Shown here: piece by piece, positions 22,225 through 50,641 of the stretch
Layout: every line of letters begins with the position of its first letter
Position numbering within the stretch: the stretch's first letter is position 1
DNA from: a virus
Lineage: Duplodnaviria > Caudoviricetes
Direction: 5' to 3' (one strand)
Length of the DNA: 64,000 nt
IMG/VR virus record: IMGVR_UViG_3300033067_002581
Coordinates: 1-64,000 of that record
Made by a program: the position numbers and the translations under genes
Notes under the pieces: model-generated
What the model saw: only the letters and a program-made list of their open reading frames with translations
Database searches by the model: none
Told to the model about the DNA's origin: nothing

Positions 22225-22570
22225 AGCGCGCCTCCAGCCCACGAGAGCGAATGTCGTCAACATAGCGTTTAACATCAGATCTTTTGCTCTCACTCAGGTC
22301 TGATAAATCTATCATCACTTCAGGATCGTTCATGATCGCCAACTCGACGCTAAGCGTCCTGATGTTAACCTTTTGACCGGCTGTGGTGATCCTCACGCCA
22401 ATGACGTTATAATCATCACGTTTCTCATCTCGAACGAGCACCTGTAGCGCGCCATCATAATACGCTGGCACGGCGTCAACGCTTATGATATCCTCGTTCG
22501 AGACGCAGCAGTTCATCTCACCGCTAGGATCTGCAGCCTGAAGCGCGGCGACCAGCCGCGCGGTCTTCAT
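22193..22570 (-). CDS. Hypothetical protein
   Basis: ATGA-coupled ORF. Confidence 0.6.
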   Translation of the reverse strand: MKTARLVAALQAADPSGEMNCCVSNEDIISVDAVPAYYDGALQVLVRDEKRDDYNVIGVRITTAGQKVNIRTLSVELAIMNDPEVMIDLSDLSESKRSDVKRYVDDIRSRGLEARCDSKSCICDE

Positions 22571-23187
22571 GAAGAGCTCCTTTTTGGAGATGACGTGACC
22601 TGGATGCGATCAGATCGCTCTTCCGTCGATCTGGCACGCTTCGCAAGCGTGATGAACGTTTTCACGTCGCTGACCTGTCGCTCTATGTCCTCATCATCAA
22701 CGTACAGCGTCAGGGTGCTACACTTCGTGAAATCACGAGCAAAAGCTGCATACAGTGCGTCGAGCTCGGCTAGCCTCTCAGAGTCTATCGACTCATCGAT
22801 GTCATCAGCGAGACCTGCGTACGTCTCACGACGACACAGCACTATGACCGCGCCGATTGCTGCATATGAATCATCCTCAGCGCGAAGTATCTCGTGATCT
22901 GTCTCTCTACCAGTCATCGAGGAGTAGACAAGCTCACATGGATAGCCTCTGTCAAAGATGACGGACACTCCTGTCTGCGTGATGAAATCAGCGACGCGCA
23001 TGTCAGCGTATCGTAACTGGTTTATGAACCTGCTACGATCCGATCTGAACGTGTCTCGCTCGCTTGACGCCTTGAAGTATGGAACACTTAGCGCCGCTGC
23101 GGTCGCGCGAGCTATGTTCGTCTTACCTGTCCTGTCAGGACCCACAAAGAAAACGACCGTCTGTTCCAACTGTCCTCCGTTACGCAA
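22567..23187 (-). CDS. dNMP kinase (thymidylate-kinase fold)
   Basis: GPDRTGKT, IFDRGYPCELVY. Confidence 0.85.
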   Translation of the reverse strand: MRNGGQLEQTVVFFVGPDRTGKTNIARATAAALSVPYFKASSERDTFRSDRSRFINQLRYADMRVADFITQTGVSVIFDRGYPCELVYSSMTGRETDHEILRAEDDSYAAIGAVIVLCRRETYAGLADDIDESIDSERLAELDALYAAFARDFTKCSTLTLYVDDEDIERQVSDVKTFITLAKRARSTEERSDRIQVTSSPKRSSS

Positions 23188-24706
23188 GGTACACGAGCCT
23201 GTTCGTCGAGTATCCGAACGTCGACCTCTCTAAAGGAGCCATGGCGATCGCCAGCTTCTTAGGAGGTGCTGACGCGTTCCACACATAAAGCTTGTGTGCG
23301 CGACCTACAGGTCCGGTGGCGTCGATCAGGAAGTACGGCTTGCCCTTCTTAGATTTCTTGAGAGTGAAGTTGCTGACGCAAAACCACGCGACGTCTCCCT
23401 CCTCGTCCTCAACGTCATCTATTGATGGGACATTACGCTCGACAAGCTTCTGCATGACTCGCTCAGGGACGAGCAGAGAGACATCAGCTGCGCCGACCAC
23501 GCTCATCACGTTCTTTAGTCGCTCCTCTCGCGTCCACGTCTCAGAATCGAGCGTCTCGATCGCCAAGGCTCTCATCCTGTCGCGACCCTGCCACGGGTTT
23601 TTCTTCGTGTGCTTCTTCATCTCTTCCCAGTGACCGATGATCACCGAGTGCATATGCTTGTAACTAGAGAATATTCGCCCATCACCGACACATTTCAGAG
23701 AGTCGAGGCCCTCGACGAGGATCAGCGCCTCGAGCGATTTTTTGTTAAACTTTGATGGGCGCCACGACCCGTCTGGGTTCCAGAGCATCTCCTCTATCGA
23801 GGAGAACGGTCGCCTCTCGAGGATCTCGTCTATCGCTGTGTCTCCGATCCCCTTATAGGATCCGAACGACGGCACCAATACCCTGTTGCCCAGCGATGAC
23901 CAGCACCTGTTCGCATAGTTGACGTCAACGTTGCTGAGCTTGTATCCAAGGGAGCGCACCTCAGCGAAAGCCTTTGCGCGATCCTTTGGATTGTTCGACA
24001 TTGATTGGAGGTACGCGCAGGCCCACTCGTCCTCGTGGTATGTCATGAGCCATGCGCAGAAATAGCTGTCAATGGCATACGATACTGCGTGCGCCTTATT
24101 GAACCCGTAGCCAGCGAACCACAGGATCCTGTCATACAGGTTCTCTGCGACGGACTTGTCATATGAGTTCGCGACTGCGCCGATCACGAAGTTGTCACGC
24201 ATTGACTGCGCCTTCTTCTTTGACTCTTCACCACCACCGATCGTGCGCTTCATGATCGCTTTTCGCAGCTTGTCACACTCCTCAAGAGGCATGCCAGCTA
24301 CCTCGTGAGCTAGCTGCATGACCTGCTCCTGAAAGATGATGAGGCCATCTGTCTTTTTTAGAATCCTGTTGATGCGCAGGTCGCCCCAGTCGTACTGCTT
24401 ACCCTGCCTTGCGTCGACATACAAGTCGTCGACTTTCGCAGCGAGAGGCCCAGGTCGATAGATCGACGTCAGGGTCGCTATGTCAATGATCGATTTCGGC
24501 TTAGCTCTCTTGAAGAAGCGCTGCGCGCCCTGCTGCGTGCATTGGAAGACGCCTGCCCACTTACCCTGGTGATAGACGTTTTCATAGACGTGCTGATCGT
24601 CTAAATCAACGACGTCTGGCGCGAGGTTGTTTAAATACCAGTCCTTAGTGTCTTGGAACGCGACAGGATCGCGAGACGCATCTCTTAGCTTTGTGACAAC
24701 CGCCAT
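23180..24706 (-). CDS. dnaE: DNA polymerase III alpha, C-terminal half (fingers, HhH, OB-like)
   Basis: GVFQ, SIYRPGPL, GLIIFQEQVM, FAGYGFNKAHAVSYA, KGIG. Confidence 0.95.
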   Translation of the reverse strand: MAVVTKLRDASRDPVAFQDTKDWYLNNLAPDVVDLDDQHVYENVYHQGKWAGVFQCTQQGAQRFFKRAKPKSIIDIATLTSIYRPGPLAAKVDDLYVDARQGKQYDWGDLRINRILKKTDGLIIFQEQVMQLAHEVAGMPLEECDKLRKAIMKRTIGGGEESKKKAQSMRDNFVIGAVANSYDKSVAENLYDRILWFAGYGFNKAHAVSYAIDSYFCAWLMTYHEDEWACAYLQSMSNNPKDRAKAFAEVRSLGYKLSNVDVNYANRCWSSLGNRVLVPSFGSYKGIGDTAIDEILERRPFSSIEEMLWNPDGSWRPSKFNKKSLEALILVEGLDSLKCVGDGRIFSSYKHMHSVIIGHWEEMKKHTKKNPWQGRDRMRALAIETLDSETWTREERLKNVMSVVGAADVSLLVPERVMQKLVERNVPSIDDVEDEEGDVAWFCVSNFTLKKSKKGKPYFLIDATGPVGRAHKLYVWNASAPPKKLAIAMAPLERSTFGYSTNRLVYLA

Positions 24707-24715
24707 GATTCATAT

Positions 24716-24744
24716 ACTGTACCACAGTCGCGCGCGGGATGCAT
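24716..24744 (-). promoter_or_regulatory. Putative promoter ATGCAT-17-TACAGT for the dnaE C-half
   Basis: Recurrent motif with TG extension; ATG 9 nt downstream. Confidence 0.55.
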
Positions 24745-24777
24745 TATGTTACGTGTCAGCCTCCTATTTAGGAGATC

Positions 24778-25203
24778 ATGATGATGAAGACGCAACGACA
24801 CAAAGACGCCCCACTCCTTCTTACGCTCATCCGTGAGGCCGCGAGAGCCAACAGCTCTCTGCCACCAGAACTTTTACAGCTGATTGGTAGCGCGCCGTTA
24901 AAGGTCACAAAGGACAAGGACAGAGACAGATGGATCGCTGAGGCAAGATTCAGTGAAAAGAAGAGAGCTGAGCAGGGTAAGATGACTCGCGCCTGGGAAA
25001 GGATCACAGCGACCGTCAAAAAGAAACCATGGAAGCGTGTGGAGGCTAGCTCAAGCGGGTGGAACGGTCAGACTGACACGGGCGGAAACTTCTCAAGAGA
25101 TGAGATAGCGTTCAAACACAAGGACGGGTTGAGCGTAAAACTGTCTCACCACGTCTCGTTCTCGACAGGGATGAAGAGCTGGACGATCGTCGCGTGGCGC
25201 TAG
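24778..25203 (+). CDS. Basic hypothetical late protein
   Basis: CTATTTA and AGGAG upstream; LLTLIRE motif. Confidence 0.7.
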   Translation: MMMKTQRHKDAPLLLTLIREAARANSSLPPELLQLIGSAPLKVTKDKDRDRWIAEARFSEKKRAEQGKMTRAWERITATVKKKPWKRVEASSSGWNGQTDTGGNFSRDEIAFKHKDGLSVKLSHHVSFSTGMKSWTIVAWR

Positions 25204-26180
25204 GCGACGTCATTAAACATGTCAGCGATCTCTTTTCGCGACATGCCTGTAGCGATCGACCATGACCTCCACATCGGGTTCTCTAAGAAGAACCCGGCGC
25301 TGTCTGCTCTTCCGCTGCTTCGATACGCAACGATCGCTTCCGTCATATCTTTGAACGCCTGATCAGCTGACGTAACATCTGAAGGCATCTCAGAAGAGGC
25401 GCCTGCGTCATCAGCTAGCATCGCGCTGAGCCTCGCGTCAGCCTTGCCCGGGTGAGATGCGTTATCGCGATATCTCTGCCCGGCTGACGCGTGAACCTCT
25501 CCAGTCTCATCGTCTATGACATCCTCAGCTGAGATCTCGTCTGGGTCGCGAGATCGAACGAACGCTCTCGCGCTAGCAGCGGTCGGGTATGACGCCTCTT
25601 TTAGCAGCGACTTCAGCGTGATGACCGACTCACGAGTGAGCTTCATCGCCTCGTACGCGAGGTCAGCGATAGCGTCCTTCATCTCAACTCGCGTCATGCC
25701 GAGATCAAACGCCCACCTGCGCCAATCTGGATAAACGGCGAAGAACCCCTCGGCTCCGTCCGCGGCAGCGTCAGCCGCGACGTCAGTGCTCTCTGAGTCA
25801 TACGAGTCGCCAGCGTCATCAGCGAATCCAGTGAACCCATCGCAGAATTCCTTGACGGCTGCTTCATACTCTGCTCGAGACGTCTCCTTTTCGTCGACAT
25901 CATCGTCATCGTCGATGTCATCACCGTATATCTCATCCCACATACCCACGCGACGAGCGTACTGTTCATCGTGAATCGCTCGTTTGTCATCTGGCACGTG
26001 CTCAGGCGAGAGTGGCGAGGTGTGAAACGGCTGACCTTCCTCTAGGAAGACCTCGTTCGTCTCTTCGTCAATGATATCATATGACGCGACATCGTCTCCG
26101 TCATGAGACGCGATCAGCTCCTTAGCGTCTGCCTCTGACATGTACCGCTCATGTGAGCGTGACTCTCTCATCTTTTTCAT
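25200..26180 (-). CDS. Acidic protein with two tandem repeat modules
   Basis: DIIDEETNEV / DVIDDETGEV and GFF...WRRW...GMTR / GFF...WRSW...GMSR; ATAGATA upstream. Confidence 0.75.
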   Translation of the reverse strand: MKKMRESRSHERYMSEADAKELIASHDGDDVASYDIIDEETNEVFLEEGQPFHTSPLSPEHVPDDKRAIHDEQYARRVGMWDEIYGDDIDDDDDVDEKETSRAEYEAAVKEFCDGFTGFADDAGDSYDSESTDVAADAAADGAEGFFAVYPDWRRWAFDLGMTRVEMKDAIADLAYEAMKLTRESVITLKSLLKEASYPTAASARAFVRSRDPDEISAEDVIDDETGEVHASAGQRYRDNASHPGKADARLSAMLADDAGASSEMPSDVTSADQAFKDMTEAIVAYRSSGRADSAGFFLENPMWRSWSIATGMSRKEIADMFNDVA

Positions 26181-26202
26181 GAGAGATATCTATGCTGATC
26201 AC

Positions 26203-26442
26203 CTAACGCCCGTTGCCACGAAGCGGGCACCATGACGGAGGAGGCGTCGTCTCTCTTTTCGTGTTATACGGGCGGCAGGCGTTTGTCACAGTCCTACGGT
26301 TGAGCGAGTCATGAGCGCACATGACAGCTACGTCATCAGAGCAGAACCAGTCATGCGGGTCTGGGTCGCTTGACACCCGATGATGTGGGCAGTCAACGCA
26401 ACTATCGATCTTGACGTTTAGCGTAACGCTGTGATCTCTCAT
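26203..26442 (-). CDS. Small Cys-rich hypothetical protein
   Basis: CVDCPH...WFC...C...WCPL; leaderless promoter upstream. Confidence 0.7.
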   Translation of the reverse strand: MRDHSVTLNVKIDSCVDCPHHRVSSDPDPHDWFCSDDVAVMCAHDSLNRRTVTNACRPYNTKRETTPPPSWCPLRGNGR

Positions 26443-26448
26443 ACATGG

Positions 26449-26477
26449 ATCGTATCACGCACGCCAGAGTGTTACAC
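26449..26477 (-). promoter_or_regulatory. Putative promoter GTGTAA-17-TACGAT, leaderless
   Basis: Recurrent motif, ATG 6 nt downstream. Confidence 0.6.
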
Positions 26478-26580
26478 AGTGTGCACGAGCATGGTTCCAG
26501 GCGGCCGGCGTAGAATCTGTGAAGTTGCTTATAGGCTCAAGTCAACAGGTGAACTGGTGACACGAGGTCACACATCACCG

Positions 26581-27231
26581 TTAGAAAAACGTTCGAAGGA
26601 TGAGTTCAACGACAAACGCGACCATCGCGACTGATAGCGCCCTAGTCAGCCATTTGGCTCTGGTGTCAGACTTACTCAGTCTCTCAGAGAGACCTGAGAG
26701 CTTTTCCTTCAGCGCTCTGGACTCGACGAGCGCGTCGAATCTATCATGCGTCCACTTATCAGCGTGATCCGCTGGAAGCTCGCCAGCATGGCGCTGCGCC
26801 CACCAGTCACACAACCTCGTGAGCTGCTTCGCTGCCTCACGCACCAGATCGTCTGATGGCTCACCAGGCGTCCACCTGTGGACGATCGCTGGGCAGGCGC
26901 CGTCGCACCATACGAAGTGCATCGCATCGAGCTGCAAGTCCTTCTGCTTTACGAGGTCGCTAGCAGCTGCGGCGGCGAGCTTGAGCTCGCGCACTTCATG
27001 CTGAAGTCTGGTCATCAGCGCTAGCTTCTCAGGTGACTCAAGCCTGCTTCGCTGACCATACACTGAGCTCGTTGGAAGCGTCGTCGAGCTCAGCGGCTCA
27101 CCACCCGCTAGGCGCAGGTCATCTTCTGTCGTAAAGACTCGATTGACGCGCCAGGCGCCGTTAGCATACTCTAACAGAGGGTACACATCGTGCTGTTCAG
27201 CGTTCTGCATTTGATCACCCTGACGCGTCAT
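26581..27231 (-). CDS. Coiled-coil protein with C-terminal membrane anchor
   Basis: Heptad stretches; C-terminal ALSVAMVAFVVELILRTFF. Confidence 0.65.
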   Translation of the reverse strand: MTRQGDQMQNAEQHDVYPLLEYANGAWRVNRVFTTEDDLRLAGGEPLSSTTLPTSSVYGQRSRLESPEKLALMTRLQHEVRELKLAAAAASDLVKQKDLQLDAMHFVWCDGACPAIVHRWTPGEPSDDLVREAAKQLTRLCDWWAQRHAGELPADHADKWTHDRFDALVESRALKEKLSGLSERLSKSDTRAKWLTRALSVAMVAFVVELILRTFF

Positions 27232-27233
27232 AC

Positions 27234-29468
27234 TTATCTGACGCTTTTGACGTCATCACCAGGCGCGAGGTCTCTGACGAGCACGTCGCCGCGATTCGCT
27301 GTCACGGCTATCGCGTCTCCGAAGCAGAAAAACGAACCCGCGTCAGTCTCGACCTCGAACCAGCCTCGCGCCTTGCGCTGCGCCTCTATCACTAGCTCGA
27401 TCGTCTTCTCGACGATGCGCAGCGTGTCAAGTCCAAGCAGGTCAAACTTGACCCACCCAAACTGATCGAGCTCCTTCACGTTGACGCCCTCGGTCCACGG
27501 CGTCTGCTGCTCACCCTTTGAAGCGATCAGCGGCATGCGCTCCGCTATGCGATCGCAGACTATGACGCCACCCGCGTGTCGGCCCAGCGATCTTGGCTGC
27601 TTGAACAGCGTCGCGATCGGTTCAGCTATCTGAGGATGTTTGTCGATGAAGCTCTTAAACGATGGACTGTGTTTCAGAGCGTCATCAAGCTTCAGCACGA
27701 AAAGATTCTTGTCATCACCGTGCTTGAGCGTAGCCTTTCGAACCTCGTCCTCAACGGTTCGCGTCGCGGCGTTCGCTTCCTCAAAAGGGACGCCGTAAAA
27801 CTTCGCGACGTCTTTGATCAGCGTCTTAAGCTTGAATGTGTTGTAGTTTGAGATGGGAACGACGTTCTCATAGCCAAACTTCTCACGCAGCAGCTCTATC
27901 AGCCTCGCCCTGTCAGACACGTCAGTGTCAACATCTGGCGCCTCCTCGCGATACTTGTTCAAGAATCTCGCGAACAGCAGGTCGTATTTGATCGGATCGA
28001 CATCCGTGATGTGCAAAAGGTACGTCACCAGCGATCCCGCGCCTGAGCCGCGGCCAGGCCCGACGAGCATAGACTGCTGCGCGACATCAACGATCTCTCT
28101 AAGCGTCAGGAAATACTCAGCGAACTTTTTGGCGCTGATGACCTCGAGCTCAGTCTCGAGCCTCTCGACGTACTCTCTCGACGAATCAAAGCCACGCTCC
28201 CTCATCCCGATCTGACACAACTCAGCCAATCGCTGGTCGGCGGTCACACCGGGCGGCACCACGATCGATGTTGGCAGCTTCATCGACCTGTCTGGTTGGA
28301 CGTCTCCGACGACGCTGTGCGCGATGTCATACGATCTCTCGATCGCGTCACAGATCTCATCATCAGCGTAGAAGTCTGCGTCGCCCTTTGACTCCTGATA
28401 CGCCGCCCACACCTGAGCCGCATTCTTTGGATAGAGCTCCGATTTCAGCTGCGATACGTCAGACGGCAGCTTAGACGCATCAATCTCAGCGTAATTAAGC
28501 CATCCAAGCTTCTTGTATATCTCTCGCTCCTTCCACAGCTCTGGGCGAGGATAGTGACTATCAGCTGCCACGACTAGCTGCTTCGTGAGACTGTTTGCGC
28601 GAGCGAACTCTAACATCGCCCTGTTGACATAGTTCTGAGCGGCGAGCCTGTTAAACTGCAGCTCGAGGAACACGTTCTCGCGCCCGAACGCCCACTCCAG
28701 CCTATCAAACGTCGCTGCCATCTTGCGTTGCACGTCACGCATGAGAGAACCATCACTAAGCAAATGATGATTGAGGTCATCAAACTTCACTCGCTGCGCC
28801 GAGCTCAAGGCGTCATACGCCATCGTCCCGCCGATGCAAGCCGTGAGAGCTATCAGGTGATCGCCTTGAGCTGCCTCCTTAAGCATCGCGTAATCGACTC
28901 TAGGAAACCTGTAAAAGCCTTCCGCGTAACCGCGTGACACGAGGTGAAACAGTCGCTGCAGCCCGACGCTCGTCTTTGGTATGACGACGAGGTGATGACG
29001 CCTCTTTATAGGATCGTAATACTTCGTTGACTTTGACTCATCCTCTCGCTCGATGGTCAGCGCGTTGCTCATCTCAACGTCAACAGTCTCATCGTCCTCG
29101 TCAACTGTTGCGACGATGGGTGTGATCACCTGCTCCTCCTGAGCGAGGACACGAGCAACGGCCTCAGTATCACCGTCAGCGGCGTTTCGCTTTAGCTCAT
29201 ACTCTCTGCGCCATTCATTGAGGTCTGGGTGAACGTACATCTCGCACCCAGCGATGAATTTGAACCTCTTATCCTGCTTCTTAAGCTTCTCAGCGAACAG
29301 AAAAGCAGACGCATATGAGTTGCAGTGACCGTGCTCCGTAAGAGCCCAGGCGTCCATGCCGTTCTCTAGAACGTATTTGATGTGATCCTCGGCGGCGCCG
29401 AGGCCATCATAGACGCTTGCGCCTGTGTGAGCGTGGAGACCTACGAACTTCGATGGAACTTTTATCAT
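27234..29468 (-). CDS. dnaE: DNA polymerase III alpha, N-terminal half (PHP, palm, thumb) with an intein-like 42-aa tail
   Basis: LHAHT, ALTEHG, GRGSGAGSL, PDVDTD, HAGGV, KFDLLGL. Confidence 0.95.
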   Translation of the reverse strand: MIKVPSKFVGLHAHTGASVYDGLGAAEDHIKYVLENGMDAWALTEHGHCNSYASAFLFAEKLKKQDKRFKFIAGCEMYVHPDLNEWRREYELKRNAADGDTEAVARVLAQEEQVITPIVATVDEDDETVDVEMSNALTIEREDESKSTKYYDPIKRRHHLVVIPKTSVGLQRLFHLVSRGYAEGFYRFPRVDYAMLKEAAQGDHLIALTACIGGTMAYDALSSAQRVKFDDLNHHLLSDGSLMRDVQRKMAATFDRLEWAFGRENVFLELQFNRLAAQNYVNRAMLEFARANSLTKQLVVAADSHYPRPELWKEREIYKKLGWLNYAEIDASKLPSDVSQLKSELYPKNAAQVWAAYQESKGDADFYADDEICDAIERSYDIAHSVVGDVQPDRSMKLPTSIVVPPGVTADQRLAELCQIGMRERGFDSSREYVERLETELEVISAKKFAEYFLTLREIVDVAQQSMLVGPGRGSGAGSLVTYLLHITDVDPIKYDLLFARFLNKYREEAPDVDTDVSDRARLIELLREKFGYENVVPISNYNTFKLKTLIKDVAKFYGVPFEEANAATRTVEDEVRKATLKHGDDKNLFVLKLDDALKHSPSFKSFIDKHPQIAEPIATLFKQPRSLGRHAGGVIVCDRIAERMPLIASKGEQQTPWTEGVNVKELDQFGWVKFDLLGLDTLRIVEKTIELVIEAQRKARGWFEVETDAGSFFCFGDAIAVTANRGDVLVRDLAPGDDVKSVR

Positions 29469-29483
29469 GATCCCTCAGATCTG

Positions 29484-29512
29484 ATCATAACACATCCACA
29501 GATCAGGTTCAC
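29484..29512 (-). promoter_or_regulatory. Putative promoter GTGAAC-17-TATGAT for the dnaE N-half
   Basis: Recurrent motif; GAGG SD downstream. Confidence 0.6.
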
Positions 29513-29692
29513 TCATGATTCTATATCGATGACGTGCTGGATGGCTAACAAGTGACCGCGCTCCCACTCAGCTAGATCGACTCCGGTTGGAGGCTCATCT
29601 GGCACCTGCGACCCAGGTAACATCGCAAGCATATATGAGGCATATCCCTTGTCATGATCTGACAGGCGATTGAATTCATCTAGCGTCATCAT
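29513..29692 (-). CDS. 59-aa hypothetical protein
   Basis: Translated by hand: MMTLDEFNRLSDHDKGYASYMLAMLPGSQVPDEPPTGVDLAEWERGHLLAIQHVIDIES; fills the gap. Confidence 0.55.
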   Translation of the reverse strand: MMTLDEFNRLSDHDKGYASYMLAMLPGSQVPDEPPTGVDLAEWERGHLLAIQHVIDIES

Positions 29693-29706
29693 TCGCTTGG
29701 ACGTGT

Positions 29707-30576
29707 TTATGTCCTCCGTCCGGAAGCAAACGCGCGGTCGGTGATCGCTGACATCAGTAGGACGTCTTCAAATGACACGCCGCGACCTGAGTTACGAACG
29801 TAGCCACGAACGGCTGAGATCACGTCGGCACACTCCTGTAATGACATCAGTGTGACTCCCTGCTCGTCAGCGTCAGCTAGCTCGAGCGCCTCCTCAACGA
29901 CTTTCCCGGCGGTTCCGTGCGCGCTTCGCGGTATCGCGTGTATGTGATATCCTGGTGTCTCGCACCTGGGAAACGTCGCCAGCGTCTGTGAAGACGCTGG
30001 CGTATCACTCATGATGCGCCTCTCTCGCTCACACACATCATCAAACGTCAGGTTTGCAGCGTTAAGCGCCAGCTGAAGCGACATCTCAAGCAGGCGCGGT
30101 GGTGGAGAGACGAACGGATCGCGTGATACGTCGGCTCTGATTCGAGAGAAGACACGCGAGTGTTCTGGCGTCTGGTTCTTCTTCCTGAAGAGCGTCATCG
30201 CGAAGACAGCGTCTGTCCGGTGAATCACTCCCGCTTGCATCGCGTATCTCTCTCCACGTCGCACAACAGTTGCTCGCCGCTCGCGAAGGTGAAACCGTCT
30301 GACAGTCTCGACTAGCGGCTTCTGATGATCAAAGCTGCTGACACATTCAGCTGTCATTTCGCGCCAGTCACCGTCATTCGCTTCGATGGCGTCCAATTCA
30401 ACGTTGATCATCTCTCCCGCTATGCACTCGCTCTCTATATCAAATGGATGATCATGCTCATTCCCATAGCTTTTGACTGGTGGGTTCCATGGCGACCAGA
30501 CGTGTAGCCTTGAACCTAACGGCAACTTGACCTTCAAAAAACCGTTCTGATGCTGAGCGATCTCGATGTCTTTCAT
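29707..30576 (-). CDS. Cupin-like domain fused to a MazG-like all-alpha NTP pyrophosphatase domain
   Basis: RLHVW...HDHPF...IHRT; KVVEEALELADA...QECADV. Confidence 0.6.
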   Translation of the reverse strand: MKDIEIAQHQNGFLKVKLPLGSRLHVWSPWNPPVKSYGNEHDHPFDIESECIAGEMINVELDAIEANDGDWREMTAECVSSFDHQKPLVETVRRFHLRERRATVVRRGERYAMQAGVIHRTDAVFAMTLFRKKNQTPEHSRVFSRIRADVSRDPFVSPPPRLLEMSLQLALNAANLTFDDVCERERRIMSDTPASSQTLATFPRCETPGYHIHAIPRSAHGTAGKVVEEALELADADEQGVTLMSLQECADVISAVRGYVRNSGRGVSFEDVLLMSAITDRAFASGRRT

Positions 30577-49573: not shown

Positions 49574-50641
49574 TTATTTGATCCTCGAGACCTTATAGTA
49601 AAGCCTACCGACGGTATCGACATCCACGTGACCTATCTCTCCGTCACTGAGGACGCCGTGTTGATCTTGGACGATAACCGCGTCATGGATGATCGCTAGC
49701 GGTCTGACGTCTCGCGATCTGCAGATCATATCAAACCCAAGCACCGCGGCGTCAACGGCAGTTGATTGCGCAAAATCATTGATCACACAACCGTCATCAT
49801 CAAAATCATCTGACATGATCAGCCTGCCGTACGCGTTCGTGACCCGGCGTTGATCGATCGACATCGCTCTTATCGTCGTCGCGAGATCATCAAGCCTGAA
49901 CCATTCCGCTAATGCCTTAGCGTCTCTAGTCCTCGCAGACGGCGTGTTGTATAGAGCGATCACGACAGCTCGCTTAGCCGCGGCTCGATCGCTGACTGTG
50001 AGCACGTTACTCGCTAGCCACTCATACAGATCGGATCCTGAGAATTTCGCTCCAACGGTGTTAGCGATGATCGTCGGTTCAAGCGCTCGAAAATCGACAT
50101 AAAACAGAGGAGAGTCAACATCGGTTCGCAGCGTTGAGCGCAGCTCACTTCTCATGGTGAGCACAGGAGCGCCTGACGTCACGATCATCCTACCGGTGCG
50201 CGTCGATAGCCGACTGTATGAGATCCTCTTGAGTTCTCCATCTCCAGCAGAGCATGGCACAAGCGTCTCAAGAAAATCACTCACGTGACGCCAGGTGCCA
50301 TCGTAGTAAGGCCTGATGATGTCAGCCTTGGCCTCTACTGCCTGCGCTACGAATGACACCACGCAGCTCTTGAACACACGAGTCGGGAGCATCATGCTCC
50401 ACATAGGATCCGTGTCACCAAAGACCTGCTTGCTCACGATCTTGTACTCATCTGGAAACGATAGGTGAGCGTCGCTCGCCGCCAATCGAAGCATCGTGTC
50501 AAAGCAGTCGCTGGTCTTAAACTTACCTGTGTACACTGGGACGCCAACTGGCGTGTCACTGACCCACGTTCCGTCCGCGCCAGTGTCATCAAAGACGAGG
50601 TGCTTCTTAGCGCCGAGCGCGGACGCATGGATGCAGAACAT
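49574..50641 (-). CDS. Short family-A DNA polymerase-like protein (palm and fingers only)
   Basis: TRTGRM, VDFRALE, RAAAK...LY, NAYGR, AQSTAVD, IHDA. Confidence 0.75.
   Translation of the reverse strand: MFCIHASALGAKKHLVFDDTGADGTWVSDTPVGVPVYTGKFKTSDCFDTMLRLAASDAHLSFPDEYKIVSKQVFGDTDPMWSMMLPTRVFKSCVVSFVAQAVEAKADIIRPYYDGTWRHVSDFLETLVPCSAGDGELKRISYSRLSTRTGRMIVTSGAPVLTMRSELRSTLRTDVDSPLFYVDFRALEPTIIANTVGAKFSGSDLYEWLASNVLTVSDRAAAKRAVVIALYNTPSARTRDAKALAEWFRLDDLATTIRAMSIDQRRVTNAYGRLIMSDDFDDDGCVINDFAQSTAVDAAVLGFDMICRSRDVRPLAIIHDAVIVQDQHGVLSDGEIGHVDVDTVGRLYYKVSRIK

Follow-up and report, generated by a model that had tools for sequence, protein, structure and literature searches.

Introduction

Dassa et al. 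(2009) described 'fractured genes', phage-like replication genes broken by a split intein and carrying a free-standing homing endonuclease between their halves; three DnaE loci as well as the NrdJ-1 and gp41-1 inteins are in the set, whose split inteins are catalytically complete (PMC2677866). The NrdA-a/NrdA-b 'genes in pieces' of phage Aeh1, studied by Crona et al. (2010), encode proteins with unique terminal tails that stem from the insertion of mobE and are essential; these tails are needed for higher-order assembly rather than for heterodimer formation, and the authors, who found no homology for them, speculated that they are degenerate split-intein remnants (PMC3045599). The Ssp/Npu DnaE split intein of cyanobacteria assembles by 'capture and collapse' (Shah et al. 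2013, as summarised in PMC11766414), and family-B polymerases are also found in pieces, as in T4-related phages, where a GIY-YIG endonuclease gene divides gp43 (as cited in PMC2677866), and in Methanothermobacter, whose PolB is split without an intein (as cited in PMC3045599). Here we analyse a split gene for the alpha subunit of DNA polymerase III, dnaE, in a 64,000-nt stretch of a Caudoviricetes virus (positions 1 to 64,000 of IMG/VR record IMGVR_UViG_3300033067_002581, hereafter the window), which is part of a 154,907-bp viral record. The first half of this polymerase ends in a short extra tail and the second begins with a short extra head, and we propose that the two derive from a split intein that no longer splices and that they probably serve to hold the halves together.

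How does this locus compare with the described systems? Like the fractured genes of Dassa et al., it has adjacent halves on the same strand, a replication gene as its host, a break at an intein endonuclease/split site, an acidic N piece and a basic C piece; the best sequence match of the tail, NrdJ-1, belongs to that intein class, two relatives (L062 and L063) have an endonuclease gene between the halves, and genuine split inteins occur at other sites of the same DnaE family. Unlike those split inteins, the module in the window retains none of the five catalytic residues and only about half of the fold, the block-A lobe and blocks F/G being gone, its pieces are 42 and 11 residues long whereas the N part measures 88-105 residues there, splicing is not expected, and unrelated cargo takes the place of the endonuclease. 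With Aeh1 NrdA it shares the fracture of an essential enzyme by mobile DNA and oppositely charged unique terminal extensions, proposed in Aeh1 to be interaction domains. The charge polarity of the Aeh1 tails is reversed, however, and they have no detectable homology, whereas Hint homology is detectable here by sequence and predicted fold; Aeh1 is known by experiment, the window from sequence and prediction. The Ssp/Npu DnaE intein sits in the same host protein, and the parts that survive in the window correspond structurally to Npu residues 54-115 (the N2 lobe and the first part of the C-terminal intein fragment, IntC), overlapping the regions whose electrostatic pairing starts fragment association there, as far as the summary in PMC11766414 describes it. 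Unlike that intein, ours lies at another insertion site (GYGFNKAH is intact), lacks the N1 lobe and the catalytic residues, and is not expected to trans-splice. Split family-B polymerases are likewise replicative polymerases of two polypeptides from separate genes, but of a different polymerase family, and intein-derived ends are not reported for them in the papers that cite them. The minimal split Pol III of jumbo phages (PMC7824862) is a different arrangement from the window dnaE. We found no description in the full-text literature of a natural non-splicing half-Hint joint, or of a degenerate split intein acting as a dimeriser.

Results

An earlier reading of the window from its letters (the original prediction) had proposed two dnaE genes about 2.5 kb apart, and two intact minus-strand open reading frames (ORFs), of 744 and 508 residues and separated by 2,527 bp, are found where it placed them. 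The N-half (27234..29468, minus strand) contains the PHP domain and the Pol III alpha palm (Pfam PF02811 and PF07733) followed by the tail, and the C-half (23180..24706, minus strand) contains the fingers, the HhH (HHH_6) and the C-terminal region (PF17657 and PF14579). PHP, palm (PF07733), fingers (PF17657) and HhH follow one another in order across both ORFs, colinear with contiguous homologs of 1,150-1,250 residues; residues 1 to about 700 of the N-half are 53-59% identical to contiguous phage DnaE, and the C-half is 45-51% identical to contiguous homologs. Judged by their sequence, the two ORFs together are a full-length bacterial-type DNA polymerase III alpha (DnaE). The GYGFNKAH motif, the site of the cyanobacterial split intein, is unbroken in the C-half, and the break point therefore differs from the cyanobacterial one, as had been claimed. 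No match to PolA, PolB, an intein or another Hint family was found elsewhere in the 155-kb record. An ORF of 355 residues at 49574-50641 (minus strand) has no Pfam match at E<=0.01, and PF00476 finds nothing in the whole record.

The limits of the extra sequence follow from alignment with contiguous phage DnaEs, a comparison that the original prediction had called for. We retrieved 56 IMG/VR relatives (L001-L056), 37-59% identical to the N-half, most of which encode a contiguous DnaE of about 1,150-1,250 residues to which both window halves align in one frame. Polymerase sequence ends near ...ELVIEAQRKAR(G) and picks up near (S)RDPVAFQDTKDWY, while the contiguous proteins read ...ELILKRKEGITNPTFINIKAWY... 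across the junction, insert-free. Because these relatives align straight across the junction, the residues on either side of the break are additions: a tail of about 42 residues that ends the N-half (G/W702/703 to R744; 27237..27365, or 27237-27362 from W703, minus strand), with a net charge of -4, no TxxH and a likeness to the N2 lobe of half a Hint domain, and a head of about 11 residues, MAVVTKLRDAS, that starts the C-half (about M1 to S11; 24674..24706, minus strand), net positive and resembling the first beta strand of an IntC. Polymerase sequence thus breaks and then resumes with extra residues on each side, as first described, and the break would fall between palm and fingers, in a loop at the surface. 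BLAST overlaps hinted that some 28 residues of the junction were duplicated, an idea we rejected because these overlaps are weak end extensions of the alignments. Read-through of the N-half into inserted DNA was ruled out as the source of the tail by its conservation in dozens of diverged N-halves.

By sequence, the tail belongs with Hint domains. Alone, the window tail matches only Hint_2 in Pfam, weakly (E=0.05-0.08) and in alignment to block A, and it is the only one of six tails searched singly that reaches Hint_2 at all. Since single short tails are below the reach of HMMER, a profile was needed, and we built one (A1; 44 positions) from the six tails. In a search of 177,635 PDB sequences it gave three matches at E<=10, every one a Hint fold: the NrdJ-1 split intein (E=7.9e-5; residues 75-106, CTPDH...NRGYVRADELTDDDELVV, running from the block-B lobe to the end of the N-terminal intein fragment, IntN), the Hint domain of Sonic hedgehog (Shh; E=0.023) and 8r2c (E=0.24). 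Against 1.84 billion representatives A1 gave 22 matches at E<=1e-3, made up of DnaE tails, block-B lobes of genuine inteins in ribonucleotide reductase, helicase and other hosts (E from 4e-5 to 7e-4) and a few evidently unrelated repeat proteins. These searches support a Hint-related tail that is closest to the block-B lobe with which IntN ends, and the predicted resemblance to the second lobe of a split-intein N-fragment, along with the Hint similarity that was to be sought by profile and Foldseek searches, is borne out by them.

The predicted fold points the same way. In one relative, P0077 (L058:6001-10996 with the next gene), the module is unsplit, with a tail-like segment, a 20-residue linker and a head-like strand in one chain. 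An AlphaFold2 (AF2) model of this insert has a predicted local distance difference test score (pLDDT) of 83-87 in the tail part and about 73 in the head strand, with the linker modelled as disordered. Nearly all of the top 48 or so Foldseek matches of the model are inteins or other Hint domains (E 0.07-3), and in a Foldseek-independent scan of 48,161 PDB chains Hint proteins fill the top 27 rows (Z 8.7-3.7), the first non-Hint chain following at Z 3.6. The aligned ranges are 62-129 of NrdJ-1, 45-104 of gp41-1 and 54-115 or 53-117 of Npu DnaE. The head is strand 59-68 of the model and overlays the first IntC strand of solved inteins, in keeping with the claim that the head resembles the first strand of a C-fragment. 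The model thus supports the view that tail and head in P0077 fold like the second half of an intein, namely the N2 lobe plus the first strand or strands of IntC.

What is missing is the chemistry of splicing, and here the profile alignment, the P0077 model and the starts of the C-halves agree with the original prediction that block A, the block-B TxxH His and the terminal HN are gone. Block A, with its N-terminal Cys/Ser nucleophile, is absent from the junction, where polymerase runs straight into tail, and the alignment of the P0077 model with solved inteins begins only at about their residue 45-62. The block-B TxxH is absent as well, the CTPDH of NrdJ-1 corresponding to [FY]-G-D-x in the family and to CFGDA in the window. 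The combination of blocks F/G, a terminal Asn (HN) and a +1 Cys/Ser/Thr is absent from the heads, which are 9-20 residues long and have no HN. Genuine IntC is retained in L058 and L062, and the genuine split inteins of the same gene family keep all splicing features. Because block A, the TxxH His and blocks F/G are absent and only about half of the fold is left, splicing is not expected; going by its sequence, the module should be unable to splice by known chemistry, and we infer that it does not splice in vivo. The single Cys of the window tail lies at the position where Pfam Hint_2 aligns block A and is not conserved in the family. An atypical split intein with a short N piece starting at this Cys (CFGD...) was considered and rejected, given the lack of conservation of the Cys and a C-half without a long IntC. 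No intron was indicated by Rfam, which gave no match at E<=1 in 22500-30000.

Tail and head are widespread. We searched 5.8 billion proteins with residues 560-744 of the N-half and listed the 120 top cluster representatives. Many N-halves of 710-780 residues, 50-81% identical over the region of residues 560-744, end in the same type of tail, and among these best 120 cluster representatives at least 41 are tail-bearing. The commonest form is RGW[FY]E.x.DG....[FY]GD..[IV].T.NRG.[IV].[VA][KR][DE]L...DD[IV], besides which there are several sub-variants. A parallel search with the C-half gave at least 54 head-bearing C-halves among the cluster representatives listed, and these start M-[AKP]-[KIV]-[IV]-x-[SK]-[IV], 9-20 residues ahead of the native F.DVK.WY. 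A relative with a full split intein (an IntC of 35-40 residues) at the DnaE break site, for which the original prediction had suggested looking, was found neither in the 54 C-halves nor among the 120 listed C-half matches. Searches of the phage GenBank collection and IMG/VR gave no tail-bearing member, only distant or contiguous DnaEs, and no further contiguous form like P0077 was found, the search returning P0077 alone; P0077 may be either a re-fusion or the ancestral state.

Four relatives have 0.3-3.5 kb between the halves, and the genes found in this gap differ from one relative to the next. L061 has about 290 bp between its halves; the gap of L059 (10242-13246) carries an HD hydrolase, ThyX and other genes; that of L060 (10249-13103) carries six small ORFs, and a real mini-intein lies inside its C-half; and in L062 an I-HmuI/NUMOD-like endonuclease gene lies between the halves and a genuine split intein at GYGFNK|S divides the C part once more. 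This second split, at the cyanobacterial GYGFNK|S/C site, is seen in L062:11293-14344 and in about 20 C-pieces of some 300 residues. The split intein at that site is catalytically complete in the relatives (CT.DH..., with an IntC ending ...N|SH) and a 272-residue ORF lies between the pieces; several of the IntN pieces begin with Ser or Thr, not Cys. In L058 a genuine split intein breaks DnaE at FQ|C instead, and the N piece of this intein has a long, possibly nuclease-like, extra C-terminal region.

This DnaE family is itself a hot spot for mobile elements. Many relatives have inteins or other interruptions elsewhere in DnaE, near N-half residues 211, 474 and 513 and C-half residues 123 and 205. 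Insertions of about 1.3-1.4 kb occur at five other positions in contiguous-type DnaEs (L020-L025, L044, L014, L019, L024, L038, L046 and L050), some of which keep the reading frame (inteins) and others of which break it and may be introns or free-standing genes.

Three lines of evidence, the first two indirect, bear on whether tail and head join the halves. First, the tail is under purifying selection: its proportion of nonsynonymous differences (pN) is 0.28-0.38 against a proportion of synonymous differences (pS) of 0.67-0.88, with a core pN of 0.17-0.19 (pN and pS were used since saturation of synonymous sites makes the rate ratio dN/dS incomputable). Second, the net charge is negative in 37 of 41 tails (mean -3.5) and positive in 45 of 54 heads (mean +1.5), the same tail-acidic/head-basic polarity that is described for natural split inteins (PMC2677866; PMC11766414). 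Third, a complex prediction of tail (A1) with head (A2) gave a weak score of 0.32, the best of 3 controls scoring 0.01; the runs share >=67% of contacts, and the partner pLDDT is >=46. Of 80 solved complexes, 58 reached the mark set for such predictions, as did 2 of 110 mismatched pairs, and a score <=0.60 with the mark reached was found in only 7 of the 80 solved complexes and in both passing mismatches. The prediction used alignments that we had made ourselves, and its score may partly reflect the model's memory of solved split inteins.

The architecture is not confined to polymerase III. A1 also finds non-DnaE proteins that end in TxxH-less tails directly after host sequence. In L063 (5001-7537) a UvsW-type helicase N-fragment (P0130) has a half-Hint tail and is followed by an HNH endonuclease gene and then by the C-fragment, which starts MKIRSIKKID... 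and has no block F/G. A family-A polymerase fragment (P0135, L064:125-490, on a contig of only 1,963 bp) ends in a similar trimmed tail, as does a ribonucleotide reductase piece (P0138), straight after host sequence; the partner pieces of P0135 and P0138 were not recovered. As far as sequence goes, then, the full architecture of tail and head recurs in at least one other replication gene (UvsW), with similar tails in two more.

Four ORFs lie between the halves in the window. ORF216 (26581..27231, minus strand) has no Pfam or PHROG match, and relatives have different genes here; neither ORF79, small and Cys-rich (26203..26442, minus strand), nor ORF326, acidic and with a repeat-like second half (25200..26180, minus strand), belongs to a Pfam or PHROG family; and ORF141, directly upstream of the C-half on the opposite strand (24778..25203, plus strand), has AGGAG before its ATG and no Pfam, PHROG or informative Atlas match. 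Homologs of ORF141 occupy the same place and orientation in L059 (13249-13677, minus strand) and L060 (13110-13334, minus strand), with the conserved core ...KKPWKRV...GWNGQTDTGGN[FY]S...SF.TG.K.W.I.A. At the corresponding position L061 has an unrelated reverse ORF of 77 residues. None of the four intervening ORFs matches a nuclease family in Pfam or PHROG (or in Atlas, for ORF141) and so no homing endonuclease is seen between the window halves; relatives do have one there (I-HmuI/NUMOD-like in L062, HNH in L063). The joint between the halves behaves as an insertion hot spot.

Each half had been credited with a promoter motif of its own. A rare motif does stand upstream of both: TATA(N)GAATCA has exactly 2 matches in the 64 kb, each just upstream of one dnaE half, with 0.11 expected and 1 of 100 shuffles reaching 2. 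One match, TATATGAATCA (24706..24716, minus strand), adjoins the ATG of the C-half; the other, TATAGAATCA (29516..29525, minus strand), lies 48 nt upstream of the N-half ATG and shares bases with the stop codon of the gene upstream. Matches of the sigma-70 type are no more frequent than chance would give; from its sequence and placement, TATA(N)GAATCA may be a phage promoter or a translational signal.

Discussion

Sequence comparison and modelling support the view that the module at the DnaE break is intein-derived and non-splicing. What would such a remnant be for? We think it probable that tail and head hold the halves together as a non-covalent clasp, which as a whole explains the data best; conservation, opposite charges and the weak complex prediction make this the most likely role of the module. 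The inserted module would descend from a phage-type split intein, of which the second IntN lobe would survive as the 42-residue tail and the first IntC beta strand as the head of about 11 residues. The block-A lobe with its N-terminal nucleophile, the block-B Thr/His, and blocks F/G with the terminal Asn would have been lost, so that no peptide bond is made. The acidic tail and basic head would pair as in the 'capture' step of split inteins, completing a half-Hint beta module that would keep the halves in non-covalent contact and give a two-subunit polymerase, and the gap between the halves, the classical site of a homing endonuclease, would have become a landing pad for variable cargo genes. 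As to the evolutionary route, the module may have arisen by the trimming of a split intein, or from a contiguous intein that first decayed and was split afterwards.

Several points weigh against this interpretation. The fold comes from the AF2 model of the contiguous insert of a relative, P0077, rather than from the two chains of the window itself, and the sole direct test of binding is an in-silico score that is weak and has the head chain at low confidence. The case for intein ancestry at the exact break site comes from homology, no complete split intein having been seen there. The palm-fingers interface might suffice for assembly, much as the Aeh1 NrdA heterodimer formed without tails (PMC3045599). 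Sequence also does not place the tail in one lobe with full consistency: Pfam Hint_2 aligns to block A, and when tails are compared by hhalign with the family's own GYGFNK-site IntN both lobes score P of about 1e-3, which does not decide between them. The Hint fold is internally pseudo-symmetric, and the block-A lobe, too, is matched weakly; the second lobe is favoured by two extra upstream strands, the NrdJ-1 scores (19.9 against 2.7 bits) and the fold alignments. Finally, P0077 carries the module unsplit. The original prediction had counted the presence of the same residues in an unsplit homolog against an intein origin, and P0077 is formally such a homolog, the only one; being a singleton with an insert that is Hint-like too, it leaves the intein reading standing.

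P0077 is also the starting point for an alternative that we regard as unlikely, in which the module is an inserted domain that serves another purpose, such as docking a replisome component or DNA, and that mobile DNA later cut at a loop; joining the halves would then not be its role. A contiguous form exists, its linker is modelled as disordered and would be a natural place for an insertion, and insertion domains are common in polymerases. The contiguous form is a singleton, however, whereas split forms occur in dozens, and the cut falls at the canonical intein split/endonuclease site. Moreover, the same pair of tail and head is found in the split UvsW helicase and similar tails on the unrelated PolA and ribonucleotide reductase pieces, which argues for a role specific to the joint rather than to DnaE.

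Could the half-Hint insert instead be a neutral relic in a surface loop, the halves assembling through their native palm-fingers interface with no role for tail or head? The precedent of Aeh1 NrdA (PMC3045599), in which the halves of a split enzyme associate without tails, would be in line with this, as would the weak complex prediction and the faster evolution of the tail, which runs about 2x that of the core (identity 0.56-0.58 against 0.74-0.76). We nevertheless judge it quite improbable: both tail and head persist across dozens of lineages that share only about 50% identity in their cores, tail pN is well below pS, the net charges keep their opposite signs, the strand is exactly where the C-halves begin, and the module is kept even when fused, as in P0077.

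Covalent joining of the halves, by non-canonical protein splicing or by an intron at the RNA level, seems very unlikely, for although non-canonical intein classes exist (class 2/3 mechanisms, PMC11766414) and the head is often followed by S/T, the start of the tail lacks a conserved nucleophile, block F/G and the terminal Asn are missing, only about half a Hint fold is left, Rfam gives no intron match, and the intervening DNA consists of different complete genes in different relatives, one of them on the opposite strand. That the split is an assembly artefact or a pseudogene we consider negligible, as both ORFs are full length against their homologs and the same architecture occurs on many independent contigs from different samples.

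A broader idea, to which we give somewhat less than an even chance, is that tail, endonuclease slot and head are one kind of mobile cassette, a selfish element that fractures essential phage genes and supplies its own non-covalent half-Hint clasp in place of a splicing intein. If so, DnaE and the UvsW helicase would both be examples, and PolA and ribonucleotide reductase possibly two more; the cassette would neutralise the fracture of a gene by a third route, next to RNA splicing and protein splicing, and it would amount to a natural library of small (about 42 + 11 residues), scar-free heterodimerisation tags.

These results should be of interest to specialists in inteins, phage replication and protein engineering, the last because, if our interpretation is right, tail and head are short, naturally evolved, non-splicing heterodimerisation pairs that could possibly be put to use. 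It would also provide evidence from sequence and fold for the speculation of Crona et al. (2010) on the tails of fragmented phage genes. If the clasp works as proposed, the decay of an intein need not mean its loss, since an essential enzyme can retain its association half as a permanent interface between subunits; and this would explain how large phages tolerate polymerase genes in two to four pieces with a 'landing pad' for cargo.

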